From: a virus
DNA length: 16,913 nucleotides
UHGV virus genome: UHGV-1580312
Strand: one strand, 5' to 3'
Under the pieces are notes generated by a model. It saw only the letters and a program-made list of their open reading frames with translations, had not been told where the DNA came from and ran no database searches. The position numbers and the translations under genes are program-made. Shown here one piece after another: positions 2,249 through 16,709 of this stretch (position 1 is the first letter of the stretch; each line of letters starts with the position of its first letter).

Positions 2249-3145
2249 ATGCCTGCTGTTGACCTTTCCCAGTTACCGGAACCCGCCATCATCGCGAAGC
2301 CTGATTTTGAGGCAATTCTGGCTGACACAAAGGCCATGATGATTGCGTCCTATCCTGCCGAACAGCGTGAAGCCGTCTCCGCCGCGCTGGAGCTGGAATC
2401 GGAACCCCTGAACGTTATCGCTCAAACCATGTCTTTTCGTGAAATGCTGTTACGCCAGCGGGTTAACGAGGGCGCACGCGCCTGCATGTTAAGCCACGGT
2501 TCAGGGACAAACCTGGACAACCTCGCGGGCAATATGAACACAAAGCGCCTGGTTATCACTCCGGCAACGGATACCACCGACGCGGTGATGGAGAGCGACA
2601 CCTCGCTGAGATTGCGGGCGCAACGGGCGTATGACGGCCTGAGTGTTGCTGGCCCGTCAGGTGCATACGAGTATTTTGCACGCAGCGCCAGCGGTCTGGT
2701 GCGTGATGCGCGGGCCATCAGCCCGTCTCCGGCCTGTGTGACGGTTTCCATCCTGTCCACTGAAGGCGACGGCACAGCAACGGAGGCGTTGCTTAATACC
2801 GTTCGCGCCGTTCTGAATGCAGAGGATACCCGCCCGGTGGCCGACCGCCTGACCGTACAGAGCGCCAGAATCGTGACATGGCGGCTGAATGCAAAACTGT
2901 ACTTTTACCCCGGCCCGGAATCCGAACCTATTCTGGCCGCGGCTGAATCGTCGTTCAGGAAGTGGCTGGCTGAGCAGGGGCTTATCGGTCAGGACGTGGC
3001 GTTGTCCGCCATTGCTGCCGCACTGCATGTGCACGGTGTGCAACGCGTGGAGATAATCGAACCCACACAGAATATGGCCATCAGCGACATACAGGCGGCG
3101 CGCTGTGAGTCATTCACCATCAGCGAAGGTGGACGCAATGAGTAA
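2249..3145 (+). CDS. J: Baseplate assembly protein, P2 gpJ-like
   Basis: 298 aa, ATG start preceded by GAGAGAG, in the W-J-I position. Its stop overlaps the gpI start. Confidence 0.85.
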   Translation: MPAVDLSQLPEPAIIAKPDFEAILADTKAMMIASYPAEQREAVSAALELESEPLNVIAQTMSFREMLLRQRVNEGARACMLSHGSGTNLDNLAGNMNTKRLVITPATDTTDAVMESDTSLRLRAQRAYDGLSVAGPSGAYEYFARSASGLVRDARAISPSPACVTVSILSTEGDGTATEALLNTVRAVLNAEDTRPVADRLTVQSARIVTWRLNAKLYFYPGPESEPILAAAESSFRKWLAEQGLIGQDVALSAIAAALHVHGVQRVEIIEPTQNMAISDIQAARCESFTISEGGRNE

Positions 3146-3746
3146 TTCGTTGTTACCACCATCAGCCAGCAATTTCATGCGTTGTGCCGAAGCCGTCGGA
3201 ACACGCATTACAGACATTCCGGTAGACCTCAACACGCTGTGGTCGCCGGACACCTGCCCGGTGCATCTGCTGCCTTATCTCGCCTGGGCGTTTTCCGTTG
3301 ACCGCTGGGATCGCAACTGGCCGGAAGAGACAAAGCGACAGGTGATTCGTGATGCATGGCTGATACACCGACACAAAGGGACCATCAGCGCACTGCGAAG
3401 AGCCGTGGAGCCTCTCGGCTACCTGATTGAAGTAAAGGAGTGGTGGCAACTCAACGAGGAGCCGGGAACATTTCGCATTGTTGTCGGAGTACTTGATCAG
3501 GGCATCACCGATGAAATGCATCAGGAACTTGAGCGCCTTATTGCGGATGCAAAACCAGTAAGTCGCCATCTGACGGGGCTGGCGATCAGCCTGAGTGTGA
3601 ACGGAAAGATTTTCGTTGGTACGGGATGCTATCACGGCGATGCCCTGACGGTTTATCCCTACACCCCGGAGTCCATTATTGTCGAAGGGGACTATTTCCC
3701 TGCCCCGGCCATTCATTTAATTGATAATCTGAGAGTAAACGCATGA
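3138..3746 (+). CDS. I: Baseplate/tail protein, P2 gpI-like
   Basis: ATG at 3138 preceded by GAAGGTGGA and overlapping the J stop (ATGAGTAA). The ORF-track start at 3105 lies inside J and is less likely. The stop overlaps the H start (ATGA). Confidence 0.8.
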   Translation: MSNSLLPPSASNFMRCAEAVGTRITDIPVDLNTLWSPDTCPVHLLPYLAWAFSVDRWDRNWPEETKRQVIRDAWLIHRHKGTISALRRAVEPLGYLIEVKEWWQLNEEPGTFRIVVGVLDQGITDEMHQELERLIADAKPVSRHLTGLAISLSVNGKIFVGTGCYHGDALTVYPYTPESIIVEGDYFPAPAIHLIDNLRVNA

Positions 3747-5308
3747 CAGTGAAATACTACGCTATTCTGACTAATCAGGGCGCGGCACGACTGGCTAACG
3801 CGACGATGCTCGGCAGTAAACTGAATCTGACGCAAATGGCCGTTGGTGATGCAAATGGTGTGTTACCAACACCAGACCCTGCACAAACAAAACTGATTAA
3901 CCAGAAACGCATTGCACCGCTGAATCTTCTGAGTGTTGACCCTAACAATCAGAGCCAGATTATTGCGGAGCAAATCATCCCTGAAAACGAGGGAGGATTC
4001 TGGATCCGTGAGATTGGTCTTTATGATGATGAAGGTGCACTCATTGCGGTGGCAAACTGCCCGGAAACGTACAAACCGCAGTTGCAGGAAGGCAGTGGAC
4101 GCACCCAGACTATCCGCATGATTCTGGTTGTCACGAACACCGAAGCCATCACGCTGAAAATCGACCCGTCTGTGGTTCTGGCAACCCGCAAATATGTGGA
4201 TGATAAAATATCAGAGCACGAACAATCACGACGTCACCCGGACGCCTCGCTGACCGTAAAAGGTTTTACTCAGTTAAGCAGTGCAATTAACAGTGAATCA
4301 GAAACACTGGCCGCAACACCGAAAGCGGTTAAGGCTGCATATGACCTGGCTAACGGGAAATATACCGCCCAGAACGCCACCACTACACAAAAAGGGATTG
4401 TTCAGCTCAGTAGCGCCACGAACAGCACGTCTGAAACGCTGGCAGCGACACCAAAAGCTGTTAAGGCGGTAATGGATGAAACGAACAAGAAAGCACCATT
4501 AAACAGCCCGGCACTGACCGGAACGCCAACAACACCAACAGCGCCACAGGGGGCTAATAGTACCCAGATCGCAAGCACGGCTTTCGTTATGGCCGCGATT
4601 GCCGCACTTGTAGATTCGTCACCTGATGCACTGAACACGCTGAACGAACTGGCTGCGGCGCTGGGCAATGACCCGAATTTTGCGACCACCATGACTAACG
4701 CGCTTGCGGGTAAGCAACCGAAGAATGCCACCCTGACGGCGCTGGCGAAGCTTGCTACATCAGCAGATAAACTCCCATATTTTACAGGGGCAGATCGTGC
4801 CGCGTTAACCGCGTTGACAAGTGTTGGACGTGCCATTCTTGGTAAAACCAGCACTCAGGGAGTTCTTGATTACCTTGGTTTGGGGGAAGGTTCTGCGCTG
4901 CCTGTTGGTGTGCCCGTTCCGTGGCCCTCAGCAACACCACCAACGGGCTGGCTGAAATGTAACGGCGCAGCATTTTCTTCTGAAATGTATCCCGGACTGG
5001 CAAAGGCTTACCCCACCAATAAATTACCGGATTTACGGGGTGAATTTATCCGTGGCTGGGATGATGGGCGCGGGATTGATGCGGGACGTACCCTGCTTTC
5101 AGGGCAGGATGGTACAAGTTTTTCTCATTACGGAGGTAATTTCGACATTGGGTCTGGTCATTCAATCAATAACTATGACCAAATTGTTTCTAACCAACCA
5201 AGCTTTTCCCGTTTTTCATTTGCAGGACCTTCACGAGGTGATGGGGTCAATTATGTAACCATTCGTCCTCGTAATATTGCGTTTAATTACATCGTAAGGG
5301 CAGCATGA
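3743..5308 (+). CDS. H: Tail fibre protein, P2 gpH-like; constant N-terminal/shaft region fused to variable C-terminal cassette V1 (from about 4877)
   Basis: 521 aa. N-terminal and central regions (tandem ...QLSSATNSTSETLAATPKAVKA... repeats, ...ALTALTSVGRAILGK...LDYLGL) look like P2 H / Mu S constant regions. The reading frame passes through crossover site s1 into a ~140-aa tip domain with the PDLRGEFIRGWDDGRG collar-like motif, ending ...RPRNIAFNYIVRAA*. Confidence 0.85.
   Translation: MTVKYYAILTNQGAARLANATMLGSKLNLTQMAVGDANGVLPTPDPAQTKLINQKRIAPLNLLSVDPNNQSQIIAEQIIPENEGGFWIREIGLYDDEGALIAVANCPETYKPQLQEGSGRTQTIRMILVVTNTEAITLKIDPSVVLATRKYVDDKISEHEQSRRHPDASLTVKGFTQLSSAINSESETLAATPKAVKAAYDLANGKYTAQNATTTQKGIVQLSSATNSTSETLAATPKAVKAVMDETNKKAPLNSPALTGTPTTPTAPQGANSTQIASTAFVMAAIAALVDSSPDALNTLNELAAALGNDPNFATTMTNALAGKQPKNATLTALAKLATSADKLPYFTGADRAALTALTSVGRAILGKTSTQGVLDYLGLGEGSALPVGVPVPWPSATPPTGWLKCNGAAFSSEMYPGLAKAYPTNKLPDLRGEFIRGWDDGRGIDAGRTLLSGQDGTSFSHYGGNFDIGSGHSINNYDQIVSNQPSFSRFSFAGPSRGDGVNYVTIRPRNIAFNYIVRAA
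4863..4888 (+). other. Serine-invertase crossover site s1 (hix/gix-like, 12-2-12)
   Basis: TTCTTGATTACC-TT-GGTTTGGGGGAA. The left half matches the classical hixL left half (TTCTTGAAAACC) at 10 of 12 positions. It lies exactly at the constant/variable boundary of H (codons L-G-L-G). Confidence 0.7.
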
Positions 5309-5327
5309 AAACGTTGGTTTGGGGGAA
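5302..5327 (+). other. Serine-invertase crossover site s2
   Basis: AGCATGAAAACG-TT-GGTTTGGGGGAA. The right half and central TT are identical to s1. The TGA stop of H/V1 (5306-5308) lies inside the left half-site. Confidence 0.65.
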
Positions 5328-5852
5328 GGCTCTGCACTGCCCGTTGGTGTACCTGTTCCGTGGCCCTCAGCCACTCCACCAACGGGCTGGCTGAAATGCA
5401 ACGGCGCAGCATTTTCTCCTGAAGATTACCCCAAACTGGCACAGGCTTACCCCGCGAACAAATTACCGGATCTACGGGGTGAATTTATCCGTGGCTGGGA
5501 TGATGGACGTGGCTTGGATGCTGGGCGTGCCTTGCTAAGTCTTCAGGATGACTCTTTTGAAGCGCACAGGCATGAGTCCTTTTTTTATGCGGGTATTTCA
5601 CGTAATGAGATCCCATTAAAAAATCTTCCAAGTTCAGACGAGATGCTGACTTTAAGTTCCACAACTAATGCCTTGTCCCCGGACGATATTGATGCCACCA
5701 ACTCGTTAATTGGTAATGACGATTACAACTGTCTTATCGAAGGGAATAAAAATAACAAACGAACAGCGACAGGACTGAGTACCAGTATTGTCGGCACAGC
5801 AGAAACACGCCCCCGCAACGTTGCATTCAATTACATCGTAAGAGCCGCATGA
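5316..5852 (+). other. Silent alternative tail-fibre C-terminal cassette V2 (no start codon or promoter of its own)
   Basis: The frame opens at the crossover site with GEGSALPVGVPVPWPSATPPTGWLKCNGAAF...PDLRGEFIRGWDDGRG, about 90% nucleotide identity to the V1 5' block by eye, then a divergent core, then the conserved ...RPRNVAFNYIVRAA* end. The only start available is TTG with no SD. Confidence 0.75.
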
Positions 5853-5871
5853 AAACGTTGGTTTGGGGGAA
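5846..5871 (+). other. Serine-invertase crossover site s3
   Basis: CGCATGAAAACG-TT-GGTTTGGGGGAA. The V2 stop TGA (5850-5852) is embedded in the left half-site. Confidence 0.65.
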
Positions 5872-6339
5872 GGCTCTGCACTGCCCGTTGGTGTGCCTGT
5901 TCCATGGCCCTTAGCAACACCACCAACGGGCTGGCTGAAATGTAACGGTGCAGCATTTTCTTCTGAAATGTACCCCAAACTGGCAAAAGCCTACCCCACT
6001 AATAAATTACCGGATTTACGCGGAGAATTTATCCGTGGCTGGGATGATGGGCGAGGAATTGATGCGGCACGCGCTTTATTGAGCATTCAAAACGGGATGT
6101 TGGAAAAACACCGCCATATTGTTGTAGCTAACGATGGATATGACACAAAAGATGAATGGGAGTTGGCTACGATTTTCAAAAAAACATATACACAAGGCAG
6201 GGGGCTTGATGCCACAAATACAGGAGGGAGTTTGATTCCATCACCAACGCTTCATTCACGAGGAAGTATTGGTAACACAGGTGGTAGTGAAACCCGCCCC
6301 CGCAATATTGCATTTAACTATATCGTGAGGGCGGCTTAG
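5860..6339 (+). other. Silent alternative tail-fibre C-terminal cassette V3
   Basis: Same conserved 5' block (GEGSALPVGVPVPWP...) and 3' end (...RPRNIAFNYIVRAA*) as V1/V2 with a different central core. No ATG or SD. Confidence 0.75.
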
Positions 6340-6345
6340 TTATAT

Positions 6346-6957
6346 TCAACTGGCTGCTGCCAGTGGTATTTCCGGCAAGTTGATATCTGGTACCATGTTT
6401 ATATCCATTGCGTTCAGCGCGTCTATATAATCCAGCACGGCATTAAGCCGGGTGGTTTCTGCCTGCGTCAACTTCCGCCCGGCCTGCAACTTCAACTGAA
6501 TCAGACTTATGGAAGCCATTGCCGCATCAGCCAGTGACTGGCGCTTGGTTTCTGCCGCTTCTACTGCGGCACGATGTTGTGCCTCAGTATCTGTCACCCA
6601 TTTTTCACCATCCCATTTATCGTATGGTGTTAACGGGGCGATAGTGGTTGTAGTTTTCGGGTAGTCACCCAGCGCCGTGATTTCTTCGGTGTTTCCCGTG
6701 TCAGTGCTATAGACGGTTTCACCACGATGGTCTGGCGCATACTCCCATGAACTTAAATTCTCCGAACGGCGGATAGCATAGCCCGCTTTATGTGCGCCCG
6801 GGGCATCTAAACAGGAATTTGCCGGAATACCGACACCCACAGCAAGATATTCAGTTGATTCGGAAATATATTCCCGTGTCTCACCATCATAGTTATAAAC
6901 GACGATGTTTCCTGCCTGTACGGCAATAAGGTCATCATTTAATATCGCGTTATTCAT
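6346..6957 (-). CDS. Tail fibre assembly chaperone (Tfa / P2 gpG / Mu U-like)
   Basis: 203 aa. The C-terminal half (...KWDGEKWVTDTEAQHRAAVEAAETKRQSLADAA...) has the character of Tfa-family chaperones. Its ATG overlaps the V4 stop (TAATG), so it is translationally coupled to V4 and co-oriented only with V4. Confidence 0.75.
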   Translation of the reverse strand: MNNAILNDDLIAVQAGNIVVYNYDGETREYISESTEYLAVGVGIPANSCLDAPGAHKAGYAIRRSENLSSWEYAPDHRGETVYSTDTGNTEEITALGDYPKTTTTIAPLTPYDKWDGEKWVTDTEAQHRAAVEAAETKRQSLADAAMASISLIQLKLQAGRKLTQAETTRLNAVLDYIDALNAMDINMVPDINLPEIPLAAAS

Positions 6958-7418
6958 TATGCGGTTCTCACAATATAATTGAAGGCAATATTGCGTGGGC
7001 GGTTTTCATTCCCATCTGAGGATTCCGTTCTGTATTGACTGGTAAATCTACCGTTAATTGCACCTTGCCGGACGGCGTTATCTGTCGACAACAGACTATC
7101 CCCTCTTTTGTCATTTGGCACCAGTACCGTGTTATCCCACGCATCCCATGACCGAATATTATGATAATGACTTCCTGTTAACCACCCCTGCATGCTTAAG
7201 ATGCCCCTTCCGGCATCCACCCCGCGCCCATCATCCCAGCCACGGATAAACTCACCGCGTAAATCAGGTAATTTTAACGTTGGGTAAACCTTTGCCAGAT
7301 TTGGGTACATTTCAGAAGAAAATGCTGCACCGTTACATTTCAGCCAGCCCGTTGGTGGTGTGGCTGAGGGCCATGGAACAGGCACACCAACGGGCAGTGC
7401 AGAGCCTTCCCCCAAACC
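6957..7418 (-). other. Silent alternative tail-fibre C-terminal cassette V4, inverted orientation
   Basis: The minus-strand frame gives ...NENVGLGEGSALPVGVPVPWPSATPPTGWLKCNGAAF...PDLRGEFIRGWDDGRG...RPRNIAFNYIVRTA*. The only upstream start is TTG with no SD. Confidence 0.75.
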
Positions 7419-7432
7419 AACGTTTTCGTTTT
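7407..7432 (-). other. Serine-invertase crossover site s4 (inverted relative to s1-s3)
   Basis: The minus strand reads AAAACGAAAACG-TT-GGTTTGGGGGAA, the same core as s2/s3. It lies 55 bp upstream of the invertase start on the opposite strand. Confidence 0.65.
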
Positions 7433-7486
7433 TATCCCTACCTATACCAACTATGTATTTTTCACGAAACAAAGAGGATGTTTTTT

Positions 7487-8086
7487 ATGCAAATTGGCTA
7501 TGTTCGTGTGTCAACAAATGACCAGAACACGGATTTACAACGCAATGCACTGAACTGCGCAGGATGTGAACTGATTTTTGAAGATAAAATCAGCGGAACG
7601 AAATCAGCCAGACCGGGATTGAAAAAACTGCTCAGAACGCTATCAGAAGGAGATACGCTGGTTGTCTGGAAGCTGGACAGACTGGGCAGAAGTATGAAAC
7701 ACCTGATCACGCTTATTGAGGAATTGCGGGAAAAAGGTGTTAATTTCCGTAGTCTGACGGACAGCATTGACACATCAACACCCATGGGGCGTTTCTTTTT
7801 TCACGTCATGGGGGCTTTAGCCGAAATGGAACGTGAATTAATTGTAGAGCGTACACTGGCCGGGCTGGCAGCAGCACGCGCACAAGGACGCATTGGCGGA
7901 CGTCGCCCGAAGTTGACAAAAGAACAACACGAGCAAATAGCGAGGCTGATTAAAAACGGTCATGACAGGAAACAACTGGCGATCATTTACGACATCGGCA
8001 TATCGACGATTTATCGTTATCACCCTGTAGGCGATATACAGGCTGAAGAAACAACCAGGCAGACTCAGGAAAATGAAAACCGCTAA
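7487..8086 (+). CDS. Site-specific serine DNA invertase (Hin/Gin/Cin/Pin/Min family)
   Basis: ATG at 7487 preceded by AAAGAGGA. The N-terminus MQIGYVRVSTNDQNTDLQ carries the catalytic Ser motif; ...GDTLVVWKLDRLGRSMKHL...FRSLTDSIDTS...MGALAEMERELI...GRIGGRRPKL and a C-terminal HTH are near-identical in pattern to Gin/Hin. The in-frame 5' extension to 7280 in the ORF track is antisense to cassette V4 and not credible as coding. Confidence 0.9.
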   Translation: MQIGYVRVSTNDQNTDLQRNALNCAGCELIFEDKISGTKSARPGLKKLLRTLSEGDTLVVWKLDRLGRSMKHLITLIEELREKGVNFRSLTDSIDTSTPMGRFFFHVMGALAEMERELIVERTLAGLAAARAQGRIGGRRPKLTKEQHEQIARLIKNGHDRKQLAIIYDIGISTIYRYHPVGDIQAEETTRQTQENENR

Positions 8087-8105
8087 TCTGACCATTAGCG
8101 GTTTT
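8076..8105. terminator. Bidirectional hairpin terminator shared by the convergent invertase and gpU genes
   Basis: Perfect 12-bp inverted repeat AAAACCGCTAAT-ctgacc-ATTAGCGGTTTT, with an A-run on one side and a T-run on the other. The invertase stop TAA (8084-8086) lies in the left arm. Confidence 0.5.
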
Positions 8106-8112
8106 GCGTTAA

Positions 8113-8607
8113 TCAAAACAGCCCTTTAACGGAGCTGGCCGCGCTGTTAAGGGATGATGTGACCTTATCTTTGAAGCCGGACAGCATATCACTGAACGAT
8201 GAGGATTGCAGGCGCTCCCGCAAATCCTCATCACAGCGTTCAAGAGTCAGTGAAAACTCTATCTTTTTCGCCTTACCGTAGCGATCAAACTCGGAGCGGG
8301 TCGTATTCGTTCCGGTCAGGACATACATGCCGTAAATCTGCCCGACACCATCAATCAGAGGCCAGGGGCGTCCTGTATATGCCTGCGTGGTCAGCAACGA
8401 AAGCGACACTTCGCCACCTGTAATTTCAGGATAAAGCACACCAGAAAGAACGATGCGATCATCGCCTGCCCCGATATACTGCCAGCTTGCTGAACGGTTA
8501 ACGCGTTCATTTTTCACATGCCGCCAGCTTTTGTTTTGCTGTAACTGCTGATGCGGCAACGTACGCAGCTCAAAAACAAACATGCCGTAGATCATCATCA
8601 TGGCCAT
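8113..8607 (-). CDS. U: Tail protein, P2 gpU-like
   Basis: 164 aa; the N-terminus M(A)MMMIYGMFVFELRTLP... and ...VLYPEITGG... resemble gpU. It follows the tape measure gene as in P2 (T then U). The true start may be one of the internal Met codons. Confidence 0.8.
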   Translation of the reverse strand: MAMMMIYGMFVFELRTLPHQQLQQNKSWRHVKNERVNRSASWQYIGAGDDRIVLSGVLYPEITGGEVSLSLLTTQAYTGRPWPLIDGVGQIYGMYVLTGTNTTRSEFDRYGKAKKIEFSLTLERCDEDLRERLQSSSFSDMLSGFKDKVTSSLNSAASSVKGLF

Positions 8608-8613
8608 GACTCC

Positions 8614-11457
8614 TCAATCTTTATCGTAAAAACTGCCACGCCCGGCACGGGCGCGCCGTTCCATTTCTGCCCTGACCATTTCACCGACCAGTTTCGCCAG
8701 TTCGCGGGGATTCTGCGTAACAACGTTATGCAGATGAACATGAATTTCACCACCAAATCCGGAGGCAACAGGCTCCCGGTTACGGGAAGTTACAGGAACT
8801 GATGCCACTGGAGATCGTATGGCCTCCGCCACCGGGCGGGAGCTGGCCGCAACAACAGGGACCAGCGCCGGAGGCAGCGGAGCCGGGACCACGGGGGTGA
8901 TATTCATTGCGGGGGCAGGCTTACTGACCTGTGCAATCTTCCGCTCCTGCCACTCCCCACGAACAGCAAGTGCGCGGGGCAGGTTCTTAAAGACAATATC
9001 GCCGGGGCCAATACGTTTTTTTGTCTCATCAACCAGCTTACCTGTGTTATCAGCAATTTTGCTGAGTCTGCGTAGCGTGCCGGTATTGCTGTCTGTGAGC
9101 GGTTTGTTGTCTTTGGGTTTATCGCCTCCGGTGCCATTGCCATTTTCCGCAGACTTCGGCGGATTGATTTTCGCAATGTCTCCCTGAAACAGAGCAACCT
9201 TGTCCTGAAGAATGGCCGCACGCTGTGCGTCTTCGATTTTCTTTCTCGCCCTTTCCGCTTCATCCGGAAGCACACCGAGTTTTTCAAGTATCCACGCCAG
9301 CGTATCCAGCAACATTTTTGCAGGCGTCAGAACAAGCTGTAGCGCGCCACCAAGAGCGTTACCGAATATCTCGCCAGCACTGGTACATTTATCCAGCGTT
9401 TCCTTGCTGGACTCCATCGGTGACAGCAGCGATTTAAACCAGTTAAACACCTGGCTGATCCCGCTTCCGATTGCGTCAAAAACAGGACCAAACCGTTCAA
9501 AGGTTTCACGCAACGGGTTCAGCCTTTCCATAATCCCGCTGAACACCCCGGCAAAAAATGCCCTGATGGGATCCCAGTATTTCCAGATAAGAACGGCAGC
9601 TCCGGCAAGCGCAGCCACGATAAGACCAACCGGACTGAACAGCGCCCCGATAGCGCCTCCCAGCAAAGAAACGGAACCCGTCACCATTCCCCACAGCGCA
9701 GGCAACACCCTGACGACATTCATTGACCGGGTAAGAATGTCAAAACCAAGACGCAGGGTGGCCAGCTTCCCGTAAAGCACCCCAATAACCAGTGACAACG
9801 AGCCAATCGTTGCAGTCATTGCCAGCAACGCACCGCCTGCTATCAGTAGCTGGCGCGTCAGTACCGGATGGGCCTGCGCCAGCGAGGTGATTTTTTCAAG
9901 CACCCGCGTGAGCCACTGCGTGACAGAACGCAGCGGACCGTCAACCAGATCACTGATGCGAATACGAAGACCTTCCCATGCGCTGTCGAGATTTTTCAGG
10001 TCCCCATCAAGATTATCGGCCATTACTTTTGCAACGCGATCGGCCTCTCCCCTTGCCCCCTGCAATTCTCTGGTCAGTTTTTGCAGCTCTCCTGAACCAG
10101 CCGCCGCAACAAGCGTCTGCAAACCAACGAACGCCTCTTCTCCGGCGATGTCCTTGAAGAAGGAGACCTGGTCCACCTGTCCGTATTTTTGTGTCGCCTT
10201 ATAGAGATCAAGCAGCACATCCTCCATCGGGCGCATTTTGCCTCTGGCGTCAGCAACTGACACCCCCAGCTCTTTCAGTGCATCAGCCGCAGCTTTTGGC
10301 GGTGATGCAAGGCGGGACAGACTTGCGCGCATGGCCGTGCCAGCATCGCTTCCGCGAAGACCATTATTGGCAAGCATCCCAGCCATAGCCGCCGCTTCTT
10401 CAAGACTGATACCAAGTTTTGCGGCAACCGGACCGGTATACTTCATGGTTTCGCCCAGCGCGCGTAAATCAGTATTGGTCCGGGTGAATGCCGCTGTCAG
10501 CGTATCGCCAACCCGGTCCATTTGATCGGCTGTCAGGTTGAACTGTGTGAGGATATTGGAGCCTATATCCGCCGTCTCGCCGAGTTCGACGCCACCTGCC
10601 AGCGCCATATTAAGAACACCGGGCAATGCGGCCTGAATGGCCTGCGGAGTAAAACCAGCCATTGCCAGAAAGCTCTGCCCACTGGCGGCATCACTCGCAG
10701 TAAACTGTGTTTCAGAGCCAAGTTTTAACGCCTGCTCACGCAGCGCCTTAAACTGCGGGCTGTTTTTGTCGATTCGCGTCAGTGCCTGAACGCGGGACAT
10801 CTCTTTGCCGAACCCGATCGCAGGCTGCAAAAAACGCCCGGCAGCATAGCCGCCCGCCGCTGCCGCACCAATTGCCAGCGCACCACCTGTTTTCAGTTTT
10901 CCCGCGGTTTCCTGCGCGCGCGAATACCGCTCACGCGCCCGCGTTACACGCGCAAGCGCCTGCCGTTCGCGTTCAAGCTGGTTGTTGTACTGTTCGGTGC
11001 GTCTGATGGCCTGCTGGATGGTGTTATCGCTGCCTGTCAGGGAAATGCCGTGGCGTTTCAGCTCTCCGCCAAGCTCCCGCATTTTCTGAATTTCCCGTGT
11101 GCGCGATTCATTCAGGCGTTCAAGCCGGGTGCTTAACTGCTGCATCAGCTTTTGTTGTTTTTCGCTGAGCACTGTACCCGTGCGTTGTAACTGATTAAGG
11201 GCGTTAAGCTGGCGTCGTGCTTTCACGATACCCGCATCCGCTTTACTGACAGCGTCGCGGGCGCGCTCAAATGATCGCGCCTGACGCTCGAGATTTTTGA
11301 TCGCCCCCTGCGTTCGCTGGATGGAGTCACCAAACTGCCCCATCAGGCGGCGGGCGTTTTCGGCAGGCCGGGTCAGCCTGTCAACGGCGCTGAAAGCGAC
11401 CCGGATATCAAGAGTCTTCATTGTCTGCATTCCCGCTGCGAAGTGCCGCCCGCTCAC
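8614..11457 (-). CDS. T: Tail tape measure protein, P2 gpT-like
   Basis: 947 aa with a coiled-coil-rich N-terminal half (many Q/R/E/L/A heptads), hydrophobic central segments and a Gly/Ala-rich region. Position between E' and U. The listed start is GTG at 11457; ATG alternatives are at 11430 and 11421. The 5' end overlaps the end of E'. Confidence 0.85.
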   Translation of the reverse strand: MSGRHFAAGMQTMKTLDIRVAFSAVDRLTRPAENARRLMGQFGDSIQRTQGAIKNLERQARSFERARDAVSKADAGIVKARRQLNALNQLQRTGTVLSEKQQKLMQQLSTRLERLNESRTREIQKMRELGGELKRHGISLTGSDNTIQQAIRRTEQYNNQLERERQALARVTRARERYSRAQETAGKLKTGGALAIGAAAAGGYAAGRFLQPAIGFGKEMSRVQALTRIDKNSPQFKALREQALKLGSETQFTASDAASGQSFLAMAGFTPQAIQAALPGVLNMALAGGVELGETADIGSNILTQFNLTADQMDRVGDTLTAAFTRTNTDLRALGETMKYTGPVAAKLGISLEEAAAMAGMLANNGLRGSDAGTAMRASLSRLASPPKAAADALKELGVSVADARGKMRPMEDVLLDLYKATQKYGQVDQVSFFKDIAGEEAFVGLQTLVAAAGSGELQKLTRELQGARGEADRVAKVMADNLDGDLKNLDSAWEGLRIRISDLVDGPLRSVTQWLTRVLEKITSLAQAHPVLTRQLLIAGGALLAMTATIGSLSLVIGVLYGKLATLRLGFDILTRSMNVVRVLPALWGMVTGSVSLLGGAIGALFSPVGLIVAALAGAAVLIWKYWDPIRAFFAGVFSGIMERLNPLRETFERFGPVFDAIGSGISQVFNWFKSLLSPMESSKETLDKCTSAGEIFGNALGGALQLVLTPAKMLLDTLAWILEKLGVLPDEAERARKKIEDAQRAAILQDKVALFQGDIAKINPPKSAENGNGTGGDKPKDNKPLTDSNTGTLRRLSKIADNTGKLVDETKKRIGPGDIVFKNLPRALAVRGEWQERKIAQVSKPAPAMNITPVVPAPLPPALVPVVAASSRPVAEAIRSPVASVPVTSRNREPVASGFGGEIHVHLHNVVTQNPRELAKLVGEMVRAEMERRARAGRGSFYDKD

Positions 11458-11937
11458 GCCAGCTAACCACTTCGCCGGGCGTCATCATGAAGATTTCGGC
11501 GGGCGACCAGTTAAAAATGGCGGCAATATCCGCCACAAAGTCTTCTATGTGCTCAAAGCACACAACCGTGATCAGGCTTCCGTCGCCTGTTCGCTCTTCC
11601 CGCCAGAGTCCGCACCGCTCAAAAAATTTACGGCAACCACACATAACTGAATAAAATCACGGGATGCCATTTTTTTGATCGTCACTTCATCCAGTCGTGG
11701 CGAGGTCACGCGTGACAGCAGCGTAAACATGGATTCCGCTTTCAGATTCAGCACATCAGACAGCGACAAATCTCGCAGAGATCCAGCCTGCTCAATAGCC
11801 CCGGTGATCTCCACATACGTGATTTTTTCGCCGCCTCGCTCAATTGGTTGGGTAAGTTTTACGCCACGCTCACTGGTTTCTTTCACAGTGTCAGTAACTA
11901 CCGTGTTTTCGGTATCGATGTTTTTCGTCTCTTTCAT
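11408..11937 (-). CDS. gpE+E' fusion made by programmed -1 ribosomal frameshift (E' extension ends at 11408)
   Basis: The -1 frame relative to E is open from the slippery site to the stop at 11408 (...FFERCGLWREERTGDG...). Slipping at T-TTT-TTG changes ...VNFLSG to ...VNFFERCG. The E' end overlaps the T start, as in P2. Confidence 0.65.
11572..11937 (-). CDS. E: Tail assembly chaperone, P2 gpE-like (frame 0 product)
   Basis: 121 aa; ATG at 11937 preceded by AAGGAG. It contains the TTTTTTG slippery heptamer near its 3' end and sits between the tube and tape measure genes. Confidence 0.75.
   Translation of the reverse strand: MKETKNIDTENTVVTDTVKETSERGVKLTQPIERGGEKITYVEITGAIEQAGSLRDLSLSDVLNLKAESMFTLLSRVTSPRLDEVTIKKMASRDFIQLCVVAVNFLSGADSGGKSEQATEA
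11620..11626 (-). other. -1 programmed frameshift slippery heptamer T TTT TTG (E/E')
   Basis: Read directly from the sequence: minus strand ...GTA AAT TTT TTG AGC... This is the same heptamer used by P2 E/E' and is analogous to lambda G/GT. Confidence 0.65.
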
Positions 11938-11991
11938 CAGGAAACTCCTTTCAGTCAGAGGCGACGCACTGCGCCGCCTGCATATTACTTA

Positions 11992-12504
11992 TCAGCCAAG
12001 CCCGAGCGCGGAACGGATGCGATCGGGCACAATGTCCTTGCCGTCCTTCCGGTAGATGTGGTTCAACAGGTCGATTTCCCACAGCGGGCGATCGTTAACG
12101 CTCAGCTTGTAGTAGGTGTTTTTGACAGCGTAAGTGTGTGATGTGGCTTCGCCCTGTTTGGCCTCCCCCATATCAATTTCCGTCACACGCCCGCGCATCT
12201 CGATTTCATACAGATCGCTTTCTGCATCGGTGTAGTATTCACCCGCAAAACGCAGCAGCGTGCCGTCAATCGTGCCGCCATATTTAAGGAACAGCGCACG
12301 AACAGCTCCCCCCATGACAAAGCTCGCATCAAGCGCGGAGTCGTCCAGACCGAGATCAATACTTACCGCCCCCATCATGCCACCACCCCGGTAGCTGTCG
12401 GTTTTGCGCGTCAGCTTAGGCAGAGTGACGGACGTCACCTTACCCACTTCGTTTTCACCATCCACAAACAGCGTAAAAAAGCGAAGATGTTTTGGTACAG
12501 CCAT
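11992..12504 (-). CDS. FII: Tail tube protein, P2 gpFII-like
   Basis: 170 aa; ATG preceded by GGGAGG. The start overlaps the sheath gene stop (TGATG). Size and position are typical of gpFII. Confidence 0.85.
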   Translation of the reverse strand: MAVPKHLRFFTLFVDGENEVGKVTSVTLPKLTRKTDSYRGGGMMGAVSIDLGLDDSALDASFVMGGAVRALFLKYGGTIDGTLLRFAGEYYTDAESDLYEIEMRGRVTEIDMGEAKQGEATSHTYAVKNTYYKLSVNDRPLWEIDLLNHIYRKDGKDIVPDRIRSALGLG

Positions 12505-13688: not shown

Positions 13689-13845
13689 AGCTTTAGCCCC
13701 TTGTATCCGTTAAATGATTCGGCAACAATCATCACCCACCACGCGCGTAATCTCACCCCTGTGCCGTTCTCCCGATCCGGCGACAACAAAAAGCAGTAAC
13801 CCCCTCCGCACGCACATGCGACCATGCCGCACAGGGAGGGAACAG

Positions 13846-14955
13846 ATGACCGATACCACCATGCAATTGCTCAGTCAGGGCACAGACCCCGTGAAAATGC
13901 CGGATTTTGATATTCTCGCGGAGGGTAAAACGCTGTCAGGCGTGGCAGAGCGCCTGATGAGCCTGTCACTGACCGACAACCGGGGATTTGACGCGGACCA
14001 GCTCACCATCACGCTGGATGATGCGGATGGTCAGTTGCAGCTACCGCCACGGGGCGCGCGCCTGACGGTTCTCATTGGCTGGAAAGGAGAACCGCTGACA
14101 GAAAAAGGCACTTACATTGTTGATGAAATCGCTCACGAAGGACCGCCGGACAGGCTGACTGTTTCAGCCAGAAGCGCAGATTTTCGGGATGAATTTAACG
14201 TTAAACGTGAGGTGTCCTGGCATGATGTGACCGTTGAGCGTGTGGTATCCGCCATCGCTCATCGGTATGGTCTGAAACCGCAAATCAGCGAAATGCTGAT
14301 GGATATCGAAATCGACCACGCCGACCAGACCGAAGAAAGCGATATGTCCTTCCTTACGCGCATGGCGGAAATGCTGGGCGCAATCACCACGGTAAAAAGC
14401 GGCAATCTGTTATTCATCATGCCAGGTGGTGGCGTGAACGCACAGGGCCAGCCGTTGCCATCGTTCGCCATCACACGCAGCAGCGGCGATCGCCATCAGT
14501 TCCGCATTGCTGACCGCGAGGCGTATACGGGGGTACGCGCTTACTGGCTTGATCTTAATTACGGGAAAAAGAAAAAAGTCAGCGTGAAACGCCGCAAACC
14601 GCCAAAACCCAAAAAGGAGAAAAGCAGCAGCCGTGAAGGTGATTATATGGAAGGCGCGGAAGGCAATGTGTTTGTGTTACGCAAGACTTATCAGAACGAG
14701 CAGGCAGCAAGACGCGCAGCGGCGGCAAAGTGGCAGCAGCTACAACGCGGAGCCGCATCATTTTCCATCACGCTGGCGCGTGGACGTGCAGAACTCTACC
14801 CCGAAATGCATGGCACGGTAACAGGATTTAAAAGCGAGATTGATAATCAGGACTGGATTATTGCAAAAGCCGAGCACACCATTGATAACAGCGGCTTTAC
14901 CACGCAGCTTGAGCTTGAGGCAAAAATCCCGGAATGGATAGCAGAAACAGCGTGA
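13846..14955 (+). CDS. D: Tail/baseplate hub protein, P2 gpD-like (late control D family)
   Basis: ATG at 13846 preceded by GGGAGGG. Motifs ...SLSLTDNRGFDADQLTITLDDADGQ...ARSADFR...SWHD...ESDMSFLTR...ITRSSGDRHQF...YTGV...EGDYMEGAEGNVF...KWQQLQRGAASFSITLARGRA...SGFTTQLELE fit gpD-family proteins. The ORF-track start at 13714 is less likely. Confidence 0.8.
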   Translation: MTDTTMQLLSQGTDPVKMPDFDILAEGKTLSGVAERLMSLSLTDNRGFDADQLTITLDDADGQLQLPPRGARLTVLIGWKGEPLTEKGTYIVDEIAHEGPPDRLTVSARSADFRDEFNVKREVSWHDVTVERVVSAIAHRYGLKPQISEMLMDIEIDHADQTEESDMSFLTRMAEMLGAITTVKSGNLLFIMPGGGVNAQGQPLPSFAITRSSGDRHQFRIADREAYTGVRAYWLDLNYGKKKKVSVKRRKPPKPKKEKSSSREGDYMEGAEGNVFVLRKTYQNEQAARRAAAAKWQQLQRGAASFSITLARGRAELYPEMHGTVTGFKSEIDNQDWIIAKAEHTIDNSGFTTQLELEAKIPEWIAETA

Positions 14956-15046: not shown

Positions 15047-16216
15047 CTAATATTGAGAAAGATAATCAGCGACTCCATCTGCAGGGTTTCGCCCACCAGT
15101 ATAAATTGTGCCTAATTCTTGAGGTGTAACATATGTTGTAGGCCAAATGGCCATATTTTTAAAATAGTTATCTATTTTTATTCTTTGAAGTTCTTTAAAG
15201 AGATAATCTTCTAAGTCATTTCTTTTTAGACAGTTAACATAATAAGCAGCCGCACTTGCTACTATATCTACAATTTGTAATTGAGGATACTCTTGTGATG
15301 AATGGAATGTCAAAGAACGAGCTTTAATTGGCAATTCAAATTTTCTTCGATCATAACCATATGCCTCCGTAATTTTTGATATATCCATAAATTTATCAAA
15401 AATATCTTTCTTCTCTGTAATAGCTTTGGAATCGTCATGCTTAATATAAAAACCATTAGGGTATAATTTACCCCATTCTACACAGTGTCTAAAGAGGCTT
15501 GGTATAGATGGATCTAATGTGCTTTTCTCAACACCTTCCAATATATCATCAATATCGCTTCTGGTAATACTAATTCTGTTTATTATATCTGTGAATATCT
15601 TATCACTTGAGCATATCTTTAACTCATCAATTACCCTGTAAAATTCATCAATTGACTCAGTCGATTGGCTTCTGATCATATTCATAAAACACTGATACAT
15701 TACCTCTGTTTTTTCCTCCCCACAGAAAGCAGGGAAACAGAAATAGTAAACATTAGACAGAGCTAGATTCTGTCCATTTATATAAAGATCTATTCCTCTA
15801 TTAGAGCACCACGTCTCGATCAAAATATCAACAATCTTTGCTGTTAGCATGTATTTTTTATCGACCAAGTATATTTTAACATTCTCTTCATTGACATATT
15901 TGCTTTCAAGAAGCCTAATGATGCCATCCTGACCAGATTTTCTACGTCTAAGAGTTTTAAAGTGGGCTTCTGTTGGAGATTTGCTTCCGGTTAGTTCTAA
16001 TGCCTTAAGCGCATCCTGTTTACTAATACTACTTGAACTTAAGGTAAAAACAGGTTGCAATGGATCGAGTAAATTTCCGCCAGTATTACCTGATTCATCA
16101 AAAAATATATCAGGCTTTATATACAACATTTTATTTATCTTTGCCGCTAAGTTTCTTTTTTTCTCATTTTCTCGCTTAATTTTATTATCTCGCCTACGTT
16201 GACTATTCTTTCCCAT
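15047..16216 (-). CDS. AT-rich cargo ORF of unknown function; possible DE-motif (DUF3800-like?) protein
   Basis: 389 aa; ATG preceded by GAGGT; own hairpin terminator. GC is roughly 25-30% against roughly 55-65% in the flanking phage genes. It has a basic N-terminal 29 aa followed by MLYIKPDIFFDESG and later QIVDIVASAAAY. The family assignment is from memory only and unverified. Confidence 0.7.
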   Translation of the reverse strand: MGKNSQRRRDNKIKRENEKKRNLAAKINKMLYIKPDIFFDESGNTGGNLLDPLQPVFTLSSSSISKQDALKALELTGSKSPTEAHFKTLRRRKSGQDGIIRLLESKYVNEENVKIYLVDKKYMLTAKIVDILIETWCSNRGIDLYINGQNLALSNVYYFCFPAFCGEEKTEVMYQCFMNMIRSQSTESIDEFYRVIDELKICSSDKIFTDIINRISITRSDIDDILEGVEKSTLDPSIPSLFRHCVEWGKLYPNGFYIKHDDSKAITEKKDIFDKFMDISKITEAYGYDRRKFELPIKARSLTFHSSQEYPQLQIVDIVASAAAYYVNCLKRNDLEDYLFKELQRIKIDNYFKNMAIWPTTYVTPQELGTIYTGGRNPADGVADYLSQY

Positions 16217-16448: not shown

Positions 16449-16709
16449 ATGTTCCGTTGTCCGCTTTGTGGCGCATCTGCCCGTATCCGCACAAGTCGTC
16501 CGGAAAATGATTCAAACACCGTGCGGCAAAAGTATTACCAGTGTAACAACCTGGAATGCGGCGTATGCTTCTCAACACTGGAAGCCTTCCATAAATTCAC
16601 ATCAAAACACGCCTCCGCCGTTCACTCTTCAGAAGGTATCCCGTGGCATGAGCTGCCAGCTTCACACAGGGGAAACAATCAGATGAGTTTGCCTTTACCT
16701 CAGAACTAA
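16449..16709 (+). CDS. ogr: Ogr/Delta-family zinc-finger late transcription activator
   Basis: 86 aa; GGGAGG SD. MFRCPLCGASARIRTSR...YYQCNNLECGVCF gives the C-x2-C...C-x4-C zinc-finger arrangement and N-terminal pattern of P2 Ogr. Position after gpD at the prophage right end. Confidence 0.85.
   Translation: MFRCPLCGASARIRTSRPENDSNTVRQKYYQCNNLECGVCFSTLEAFHKFTSKHASAVHSSEGIPWHELPASHRGNNQMSLPLPQN

Follow-up and report, generated by a model that had tools for sequence, protein, structure and literature searches.

How many different tips can one tail-fibre gene present, and by what means could they be exchanged? The question is raised by a stretch of 16,913 nucleotides (hereafter the window) from virus genome UHGV-1580312, in which tail-fibre gene H ends in one of four related cassettes, the other three lying silent downstream beside a gene for a DNA invertase. 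We favour, with a probability of roughly 0.9, a switch of the Min type, working by multiple DNA inversions in the tail-fibre gene of a P2-like (Xuanwuvirus/P88-like) prophage of E. coli. The setting is a P2-like (Peduoviridae) tail module, with genes R, S, V, W, J, I and H along with FI, FII, E, T, U, D and Ogr. Pfam matches were obtained for gpR, S, V, W, J, I, gpU, the tape measure, tube and sheath proteins, gpD and Ogr, and the backbone matches that of Xuanwuvirus P88. The gpE assignment (11572-11937) is by position only, there being no Pfam match; neither H nor the DUF3800 protein matched an NCBIfam entry, and the latter had no match in PADLOC.

The sites at which Hin, Gin, Cin and Pin act comprise two imperfect 12-bp half-sites flanking an asymmetric 2-bp core, with partner sites in inverted orientation. 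Four 26-bp sites of this form, each with TT as its core, are present in the window, three of them direct and one inverted:

4863-4888, plus strand: crossover site s1, TTCTTGATTACC-TT-GGTTTGGGGGAA, central TT at 4875-4876
5302-5327, plus strand: crossover site s2, AGCATGAAAACG-TT-GGTTTGGGGGAA, central TT at 5314-5315
5846-5871, plus strand: crossover site s3, CGCATGAAAACG-TT-GGTTTGGGGGAA, central TT at 5858-5859
7407-7432, minus strand: crossover site s4, AAAACGAAAACG-TT-GGTTTGGGGGAA as read on the minus strand, core at 7419-7420

When the window was searched for TTGGTTTGGGGGAAGG with up to three mismatches allowed, exactly four matches were returned, all perfect, three in direct orientation (4875, 5314 and 5858 on the plus strand) and one inverted (7405-7420 on the minus strand). 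The chance expectation is 0.17, and four copies were reached in none of 200 shuffles. Each copy lies within a 26-bp hix/gix/pix-like site that opens a Collar-domain cassette, much as a preliminary description of this DNA had proposed; the core common to all four is, more exactly, TTGGTTTGGGGGAAGG, the G preceding it being found only in s2-s4, s1 having C. The left half of s1 agrees at 10 of 12 positions with hixL, and all four sites closely resemble the e14 pix sites retrieved with the same motif, which are also of 26 bp with a 2-bp core and read ...AAACC/G-TT-GGTTTGGGAGAA. A scan for the exact internal-site pattern in a collection holding one genome per species matched only one Escherichia sp. 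genome, a result with little bearing on distribution since E. coli has a single representative there.

The sites divide the locus into a constant part of H and a series of cassettes:

3743..4876, plus strand: constant N-terminal part of tail-fibre gene H, as far as the central TT of s1 (Pfam Phage_tail_fib and Phage_fiber_2)
4877..5313, plus strand: cassette V1, currently expressed, with a Collar domain and a stop codon at 5306-5308; an exact moving block in E. coli PO06021
5316..5857, plus strand: cassette V2, silent and direct, with a Collar domain and neither an ATG nor a Shine-Dalgarno sequence of its own
5860..6339, plus strand: cassette V3, silent and direct, with a Collar domain; the left end of an indivisible block, 5860-7418
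6957..7418, minus strand: cassette V4, silent and inverted, with a Collar domain, and followed by tfa
6346..6957, minus strand: tfa, the single tail-fibre assembly (chaperone) gene (Pfam Caudo_TAP, E = 9e-31)

All four cassettes combine a Pfam Collar domain with a divergent middle and a conserved C-terminal block. That block had been described as identical throughout, which is true of V1 and V3 (RPRNIAFNYIVRAA) but not of V2 (RPRNVAFNYIVRAA) or V4 (RPRNIAFNYIVRTA). At the other end, the 200 bp or so of near-identical coding sequence described earlier corresponds to about 215 bp following each site, 86-91% identical from cassette to cassette. A cassette unit begins with the right half-site, GGTTTGGGGGAA, and ends with the stop codon plus AAACG, and this last stretch forms the left half of the next site; the 3′ end of V1, for instance, is the left half of s2. 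Because the unit thus spans half-site to half-site, recombination at the central TT replaces one entire cassette by another and keeps the frame. V2, V3 and V4 are indeed all in frame with the constant part of H when spliced at that point, so that every cassette can be fused to it as had been suggested, and the picture of a constant H followed by four promoterless, startless cassettes holds.

Annotation suggests something different. PGAP treats V2, V3 and V4 as independent small ‘phage tail protein’ genes, separately expressed; they are annotated CDS in RefSeq, and each can be read as an open frame, of 158-177 aa, from a TTG. These ‘starts’, however, belong to the crossover site itself and lack a Shine-Dalgarno sequence, the ORFs encode only the Collar tip without the N-terminal fibre and baseplate-attachment domains, and in other genomes the same sequences form in-frame fusions with H. 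We consider separate expression exceedingly improbable and would annotate such small ORFs as silent cassettes, not genes. The ORF at 6957-7472, which continues 45 nt past s4 to a TTG, was considered as a second expressed product and rejected for want of a Shine-Dalgarno sequence upstream of that codon; a promoter scan found no convincing leftward sigma-70 site reading into V4.

Beside s4 lies the gene whose product would drive the exchanges:

7487..8086, plus strand: serine DNA invertase of 199 aa (Pfam Resolvase, E = 2e-51, and HTH_7)
7505..7576, no strand assigned: probable Fis-dependent recombinational enhancer, putative, at the 5′ end of the invertase gene, by homology
8076..8105, no strand assigned: hairpin between the converging invertase and gpU genes, scored by the scan as a minus-strand terminator only

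The gene is intact and of Gin/Pin type, and its position 54 bp from s4 agrees with the Hin/Gin-type invertase previously placed there, although the ORF start listed at 7280 is an upstream extension and the gene begins with the ATG at 7487. In Gin, Hin and Cin a Fis-bound enhancer acts in cis from within the 5′ part of the invertase gene. Here, the segment 7505-7576 aligns without gaps to nucleotides 19-90 of P1 cin, which are the Cin enhancer in the P1 record, and its nucleotide identity is 79-88% against 65-69% for the rest of the gene. Synonymous codons are modestly more conserved than elsewhere at nucleotides 1-54 and 73-108 of the gene. Reading Fis sites by eye against a degenerate consensus gave no clear call. 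The similarity to cin nevertheless makes a Fis-dependent enhancer at this position probable, and dependence of the switch on Fis and the enhancer is presumed on the same grounds. As for the enzyme, invertases of the Hin/Gin/Cin/Pin group are small serine recombinases whose catalytic domain, with the nucleophilic serine (S9 in Gin; PMC3575834), is N-terminal and whose HTH is C-terminal. Both features are present here: Ser9, in YVRVSTNDQ, and Met114 are conserved in alignment with Gin, Cin and Pin, and there is an HTH_7 domain. Sequence identity is 83% to PinE, 74% to Cin and 73% to Gin, and the best match of solved structure is Gin (4M6F, E = 2e-91). None of about 1,600 close relatives in a large homologue search is named Min. 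In NCBIfam the invertase had only sub-threshold matches, to other serine recombinases, and in PADLOC none.

On this reading the invertase would pair two inverted sites, cut at the 2-bp core and rotate the DNA, thereby inverting everything between them, probably with a requirement for host Fis bound to the enhancer in the first ~100 bp of the invertase gene. From the present arrangement, inversion between s1 and s4 would give H-V4-tfa in one step, while H-V2 and H-V3 would each need two, in keeping with the prediction that V2 and V3 become reachable only after a first inversion. With four sites and one invertase, 12 isomers can be reached. Each tip presumably confers a different receptor specificity.

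Is there evidence that such a switch works? In the enteropathogenic E. coli strain E2348/69, a three-cassette orthologue has been found by paired-end sequencing and PCR to flip, giving four coexisting variants (Goldberg et al. 2014, Genome Med, PMC4272514). Inversion was seen in growing cultures, minor forms made up 10-50% within a single colony, and the coordinates reported on NC_011601.1 were 1891695-1893703 and 1892127-1893703 (PMC4272514); these coincide with the sites of locus L003 in our set. The s1 x s4 inversion also distinguishes two assemblies of this strain from each other. The locus and prophage backbone are the same as in the window, the constant part of H is 99% identical, V1, V3, tfa and V4 are 97-99% identical, and s1, s2 and s4 are identical. 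The difference is that V2 is missing, leaving three sites, four isomers and three tips against the four, 12 and four of the window.

Other public sequences contain natural isomers of the window itself. E. coli PO06021 (L007) has the same five blocks (left flank, U1, U2, U3-tfa-V4, right flank) with no mismatches, V1 and V2 being swapped exactly at the central TT to give the order H-V2, V1, V3, an arrangement four inversions away from ours. In 266917_2 (L005) the order is H-V3 followed by tfa, V4, V2 and V1, all reversed, which is a two-step product, with 0-4 mismatches per block. The chimeric junctions predicted for H with V2, V3 and V4 all exist elsewhere as exact, ungapped matches: H-V2 over 742 nt in L007 and L035, H-V3 over 686 nt in L005, and H-V4 with tfa over 1273 nt in L025, the last being found without mismatch in E2348/69 assembly CP059840.2 also. 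At least four arrangements of the same blocks are known from public sequences, and both orientations of the segment between the sites occur (PO06021, 266917_2, IMG/VR contigs and the two E2348/69 assemblies), this evidence coming from relatives. Across loci with different downstream cassettes, the constant part of H remains 99-100% identical.

Isomers could also arise without any part played by the invertase, through RecA-dependent homologous recombination between the ~215-bp 5′ repeats, which at 86-91% identity are long enough for occasional exchange. In L005, V1 has differences at four positions near its start, within 50 nt, and a V1-type ‘GGTTCT’ occurs in the cassette nearest to s4; these differences suggest that some gene conversion may take place within the cassette repeats. 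As the origin of the isomers, however, the RecA route is hardly tenable. The blocks of PO06021 are all exact and bounded at the central TT; s1, a block boundary in natural isomers, has junctions that limit the crossover to 16 bp (4875-4890), core included, despite longer identical runs of 32-36 bp elsewhere in the repeats; and the abundance of minor forms in single colonies of E2348/69 is far above that to be expected from homologous recombination of diverged 215-bp repeats.

It might equally be asked whether the array in the window is a frozen relic of a past duplication or inversion, its switch inoperative. The window does come from a metagenome assembly (ENA ERZ27261499 k99_21174) with a single arrangement, and no convincing sigma-70-like site was found upstream of the invertase in the promoter scan. 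Against this, the invertase ORF is intact and matches the active E2348/69 enzyme at 197 of 199 residues (99%), differing only by V6I and E197K, the four sites are perfect, three of them identical to those of E2348/69 as noted above, and block-for-block identical elements occur in other arrangements. A relic is therefore very unlikely, and we infer that the inversion switch is almost certainly active in the window's own metagenomic contig.

Min-type multiple inversion is defined by a single invertase with more than two crossover sites, so that invertible segments overlap and isomers are numerous, and close parallels are found in p15B and the P1-like phage-plasmids (e.g. pMB9880_2, L011). There too the oriented sites used by the one serine invertase number more than two, tail-fibre cassettes without a start of their own are joined as 3′ ends to a constant 5′ part, and tfa is single; the sites have the same sequence, xxxATxAAAACG-TT-GGTTTGGGGGAA, and the cassettes are again of the Collar family. 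The invertase of the window is 94% identical to the P1/p15B-like plasmid enzyme at the Min position, the comparison being with that plasmid in place of p15B itself (X62121). Those systems differ in having a P1-type tail-fibre operon (S gene) on a plasmid prophage of ~95 kb with 6-7 sites, whereas here a chromosomal P2-like tail module has four. The two-state systems of Mu (G/Gin), P1 (C/Cin), e14 (P/Pin) and P88 have invertases 73-83% identical to ours; the P1 annotation locates the enhancer within the first part of the invertase gene, and in P88 the fibre genes and gpU flank the invertase just as they do here. In contrast to the four sites, four tips and one tfa of the window, they have two sites and two tips, each tip with its own tfa/U gene. 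The R64 shufflon (Rci/sfx, pilV) also shuffles alternative 3′ ends onto a constant 5′ part by means of multiple inverted-repeat sites, but there the recombinase, Rci, is of the tyrosine type, the sfx sites are unrelated and the product is a pilus adhesin. Since the recombinase here is a serine invertase (Pfam Resolvase), the window locus is no member of that type, and the name ‘shufflon’ given to it earlier does not apply in the strict sense.

Nor are multi-site versions rare in E. coli, as had been supposed. Of 5,426 complete genomes of this species, at least 714 contain cassette-to-cassette junctions; the number of sites in related loci, p15B/P1-like plasmids included, is 3-8, and examples are already published. 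The locus is a known kind of system in E. coli (p15B Min; the ‘shufflon’ of the E2348/69 P2 prophage) and adds nothing conceptual to either. It does account for how one prophage can present four receptor-binding tips, hedging its host range, and for the frequency with which short-read assemblies break or differ at this point. It should be of use in interpreting structural variation among otherwise identical E. coli prophages, and the swappable Collar-type tips form a natural library for phage or tailocin engineering.

What sits least comfortably with a Min-type switch is that a single tfa serves four tips and is antisense to H in six of the 12 isomers, some of which may therefore fail to make a functional fibre. 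The gene, with ~84% nucleotide identity to the tfa genes of HK97 and SfIV and no match in NCBIfam, has its start abutting the V4 stop codon. V3 and tfa are convergent within one indivisible block and so are never co-oriented, while H-V1 and H-V2 each have isomers with tfa co-transcribed and others with tfa antisense. A flip of tfa only, by recombination between the 61-nt blocks that end V3 and V4 in inverted orientation (repeat I4), was considered, but no locus with V3 and tfa both forward was seen. Three suggestions can be offered, all of them speculative and rather unlikely. The orientation of tfa could add a second layer to the switch: the chaperones of Mu and P2 reportedly stay on the fibre tip or alter its folding, and were that true of Tfa the number of adsorption phenotypes among the 12 isomers could exceed four. 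Alternatively, the tips V1-V3 may form another structural class, with no need of a chaperone. A separate suggestion is that tips may pass in trans between P2-like prophages and P1/p15B-like phage-plasmids sharing a cell, since sites, cassettes and 94%-identical invertases are common to both groups.

The sequence TTGGTTTGGGGGAAGG occurs exactly four times in the window with up to three mismatches tolerated, at 4875, 5314 and 5858 on the plus strand and at 7405-7420 on the minus strand, against 0.17 occurrences expected by chance; none of 200 shuffles reached four. These matches mark the crossover sites s1-s4, at which the cassettes V1 (currently expressed as the tip of tail-fibre gene H), V2 and V3 (silent, direct) and V4 (silent, inverted) begin. 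In s2 and s3, the left half consists of the preceding cassette's last codons, its TGA stop and AAACG, so that the cassette unit is bounded exactly by two central TT dinucleotides.

Features of the switch and its surroundings
gpR, S, V, W, J, I and H, plus strand: tail module
s1, 26 bp, plus strand: TTCTTGATTACC TT GGTTTGGGGGAA
s2, 26 bp, plus strand: AGCATGAAAACG TT GGTTTGGGGGAA
s3, 26 bp, plus strand: CGCATGAAAACG TT GGTTTGGGGGAA
s4, 26 bp, minus strand: AAAACGAAAACG TT GGTTTGGGGGAA
6346-6957, minus strand: tfa, the only tail-fibre assembly gene for the four cassettes
7487-8086: serine invertase, 199 aa, Resolvase and HTH_7 domains
Sheath FI, tube FII, E (by position alone, no Pfam match), tape measure T and gpU, minus strand, converging on the plus-strand genes
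gpD, a DUF3800 gene and ogr, further right

Each cassette opens with a Collar domain, encoded by the right half-site together with the ~215 bp after it, which are 86-91% identical between copies. At the N-terminus all four cassettes have ~75 residues in common, and at the C-terminus a block of 14, RPRN[IV]AFNYIVR[AT]A; the middle parts, of 55-100 residues, are unalignable between cassettes. Judged from sequence, this is the pattern that alternative receptor-binding tips should show. The region resembles the collar/tip portion of short and long tail fibres of known structure. V2, V3 and V4 have neither their own ATG nor their own Shine-Dalgarno sequence, and their listed TTG starts fall within the crossover sites. 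The reading frame is preserved when the constant part of H (ending at 4876) is spliced to 5316, 5860 or the reverse complement of 7418, as the preliminary description had proposed for cassettes brought in by inversion. Its account of the locus stands as a whole, save for three small details: the shared site core, the C-terminal block and the invertase start.

The comparison with Gin, Cin and Pin that it had suggested finds an invertase with intact domains, conserved Ser9 and Met114, and 83%, 74% and 73% identity to PinE, Cin and Gin, respectively, Gin being the best solved relative. As in the homologous Gin, Hin, Cin and Pin systems, dimers of the invertase would bind two inverted sites and cleave at the 2-bp core via Ser9, after which one dimer pair would rotate by 180 degrees and the DNA be religated (PMC3575834). 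The asymmetric TT core sets the orientation of each site, leaving s4 as the only partner for s1, s2 or s3 in the present arrangement.

Within the invertase gene, 7505-7576 aligns gap-free to nt 19-90 of P1 cin, which carry an enhancer annotation, and is more conserved than the remaining gene at both nucleotide and synonymous-codon level. When six invertase genes are compared, nt 1-54 and 73-108 (within 7487-7594 of the window) reach synonymous-codon identities of 0.64-0.74 and other parts 0.29-0.57. These two constrained patches lie at either end of the stretch given as the Cin enhancer in the P1 annotation. The near end of the putative enhancer lies ~95 bp from the s4 core, a spacing similar to that in hin. 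We infer that inversion here would depend on Fis.

A breadth-first search over permitted inversions reaches 12 isomers, with H joined to V1 in four, V2 in four, V3 in two and V4 in two. H-V4 is one step from the window's arrangement, H-V2 and H-V3 two, and the order seen in Escherichia coli PO06021 four.

Switching was judged from public sequences. In PO06021 (L007) the left flank, V1 (4877-5313), V2 (5316-5857), V3-tfa-V4 (5860-7418) and the right flank each match the window with 0 mismatches, and only the block order differs, with the cuts at the central TT: H-V2, V1, V3, tfa<, V4<. E. coli 266917_2 (L005) carries H-V3, tfa<, V4<, V2<, V1< and a fifth cassette, the order predicted from an s1 x s4 inversion and then s1 x s3. 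Artificial H|V2, H|V3 and H|V4+tfa junctions, constructed from the window sequence, found exact ungapped matches of 742 nt in L007 and L035, 686 nt in L005 and 1273 nt in L025, respectively. Junctions involving s1 place the exchange within a 16-bp interval, 4875-4890. Elsewhere the repeat has identical stretches of 32-36 bp, and this confinement points to site-specific exchange instead of homologous recombination.

Two assemblies of EPEC E2348/69 (NC_011601.1 and CP059840.2) hold a three-cassette version in opposite orientations, H-V1 in one and H-V4 then tfa in the other. Goldberg et al. 2014 (PMC4272514), by paired-end sequencing of single colonies, reported two overlapping inversions in this P2 prophage (NC_011601.1, 1891695-1893703 and 1892127-1893703) and three 215-bp inverted repeats, confirmed the coexistence of four variants by PCR, and named the locus a shufflon. 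Their coordinates coincide with s1, s2 and s4 of the E2348/69 locus (L003), whose sites are identical to the window's and whose invertase differs only by V6I and E197K; the orthologous system is thus experimentally active. Public sequences behave as a working switch predicts, and the reading of sequential inversions presenting four tips is supported by the isomers, the exact junctions and this active orthologue.

Public contigs L019, L025, L035, L075 and L076 begin or terminate a few bases from a crossover site or within the 215-bp repeat, which is where mixed isomers or the repeats would be expected to interrupt an assembly. The palindromic 'v3> <tfa <v4 v4> tfa> <v3' of IMG/VR contig L032 looks like a mis-assembly of two isomers. 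V1 of the closely related prophage L005 differs from the window's at four of its first 50 nt, suggesting gene conversion among cassette 5' repeats; its fifth cassette adjoins the invertase (locus 11730-12473), and a 1.9-kb DUF6645/SASA-domain gene (2845-4725) is inserted between its lysis and tail genes.

The preliminary description called multi-site systems rarer than two-form ones, but a 91-nt probe (cassette 3' end, s2 and next cassette 5' end; at least 80% covered) is found in 714 of 5,426 complete E. coli genomes, and IMG/VR contigs and E. coli loci carry 3-8 sites in many arrangements. P1/p15B-like plasmids share the sites and the cassette family and likewise possess only one tfa; in the Min position they have an invertase of 94% identity. 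The pix sites of e14 differ only slightly. One such phage-plasmid, the E. coli plasmid pMB9880_2 (L011; NZ_CP103764.1, locus 4110-8709), has seven sites of the window's sequence; its Collar cassettes are 88-92% identical to the window's and its invertase 94%. P1-like plasmids and P2-like prophages seem to have cassettes and invertases in common. With its four sites, the window's system belongs to the Min-type family, here transplanted into the tail module of a P2-like phage. It is not rare, nor is its kind new. The term shufflon does not strictly apply, since R64 shufflons use the tyrosine recombinase Rci rather than a serine invertase.

In the classical G, C and P segments and in phage P88, each tip comes with its own chaperone gene, whereas here one tfa serves four. 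The gene lies directly against V4 and converges with V3 inside one indivisible block, and is therefore antisense to the H operon in six isomers out of 12, the window's arrangement among them. V1-V3 may fold without Tfa; otherwise, some isomers would be defective or tfa orientation would add a phenotypic layer. The same design occurs in pMB9880_2 and many IMG/VR loci, and its presence in the P1-like plasmids suggests a tolerated, conserved property of the Min-type family.

The source is a 16.9-kb metagenome contig (ENA ERZ27261499 k99_21174) with a Xuanwuvirus/P88-like Peduoviridae backbone; in these phages, too, the stretch separating fibre genes from gpU contains a DNA invertase. In P2-like phages, cargo (moron) genes typically sit in the slot between gpD (13714-14955) and ogr (16449-16709), which is occupied here by the 389-aa DUF3800 protein gene (15047-16216, minus strand), without a match in PADLOC or NCBIfam. 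The two tail operons, co-directional in P2 itself, meet at 8076-8105 between the converging invertase and gpU genes, where a hairpin with a 12-bp stem scans as a minus-strand terminator only.
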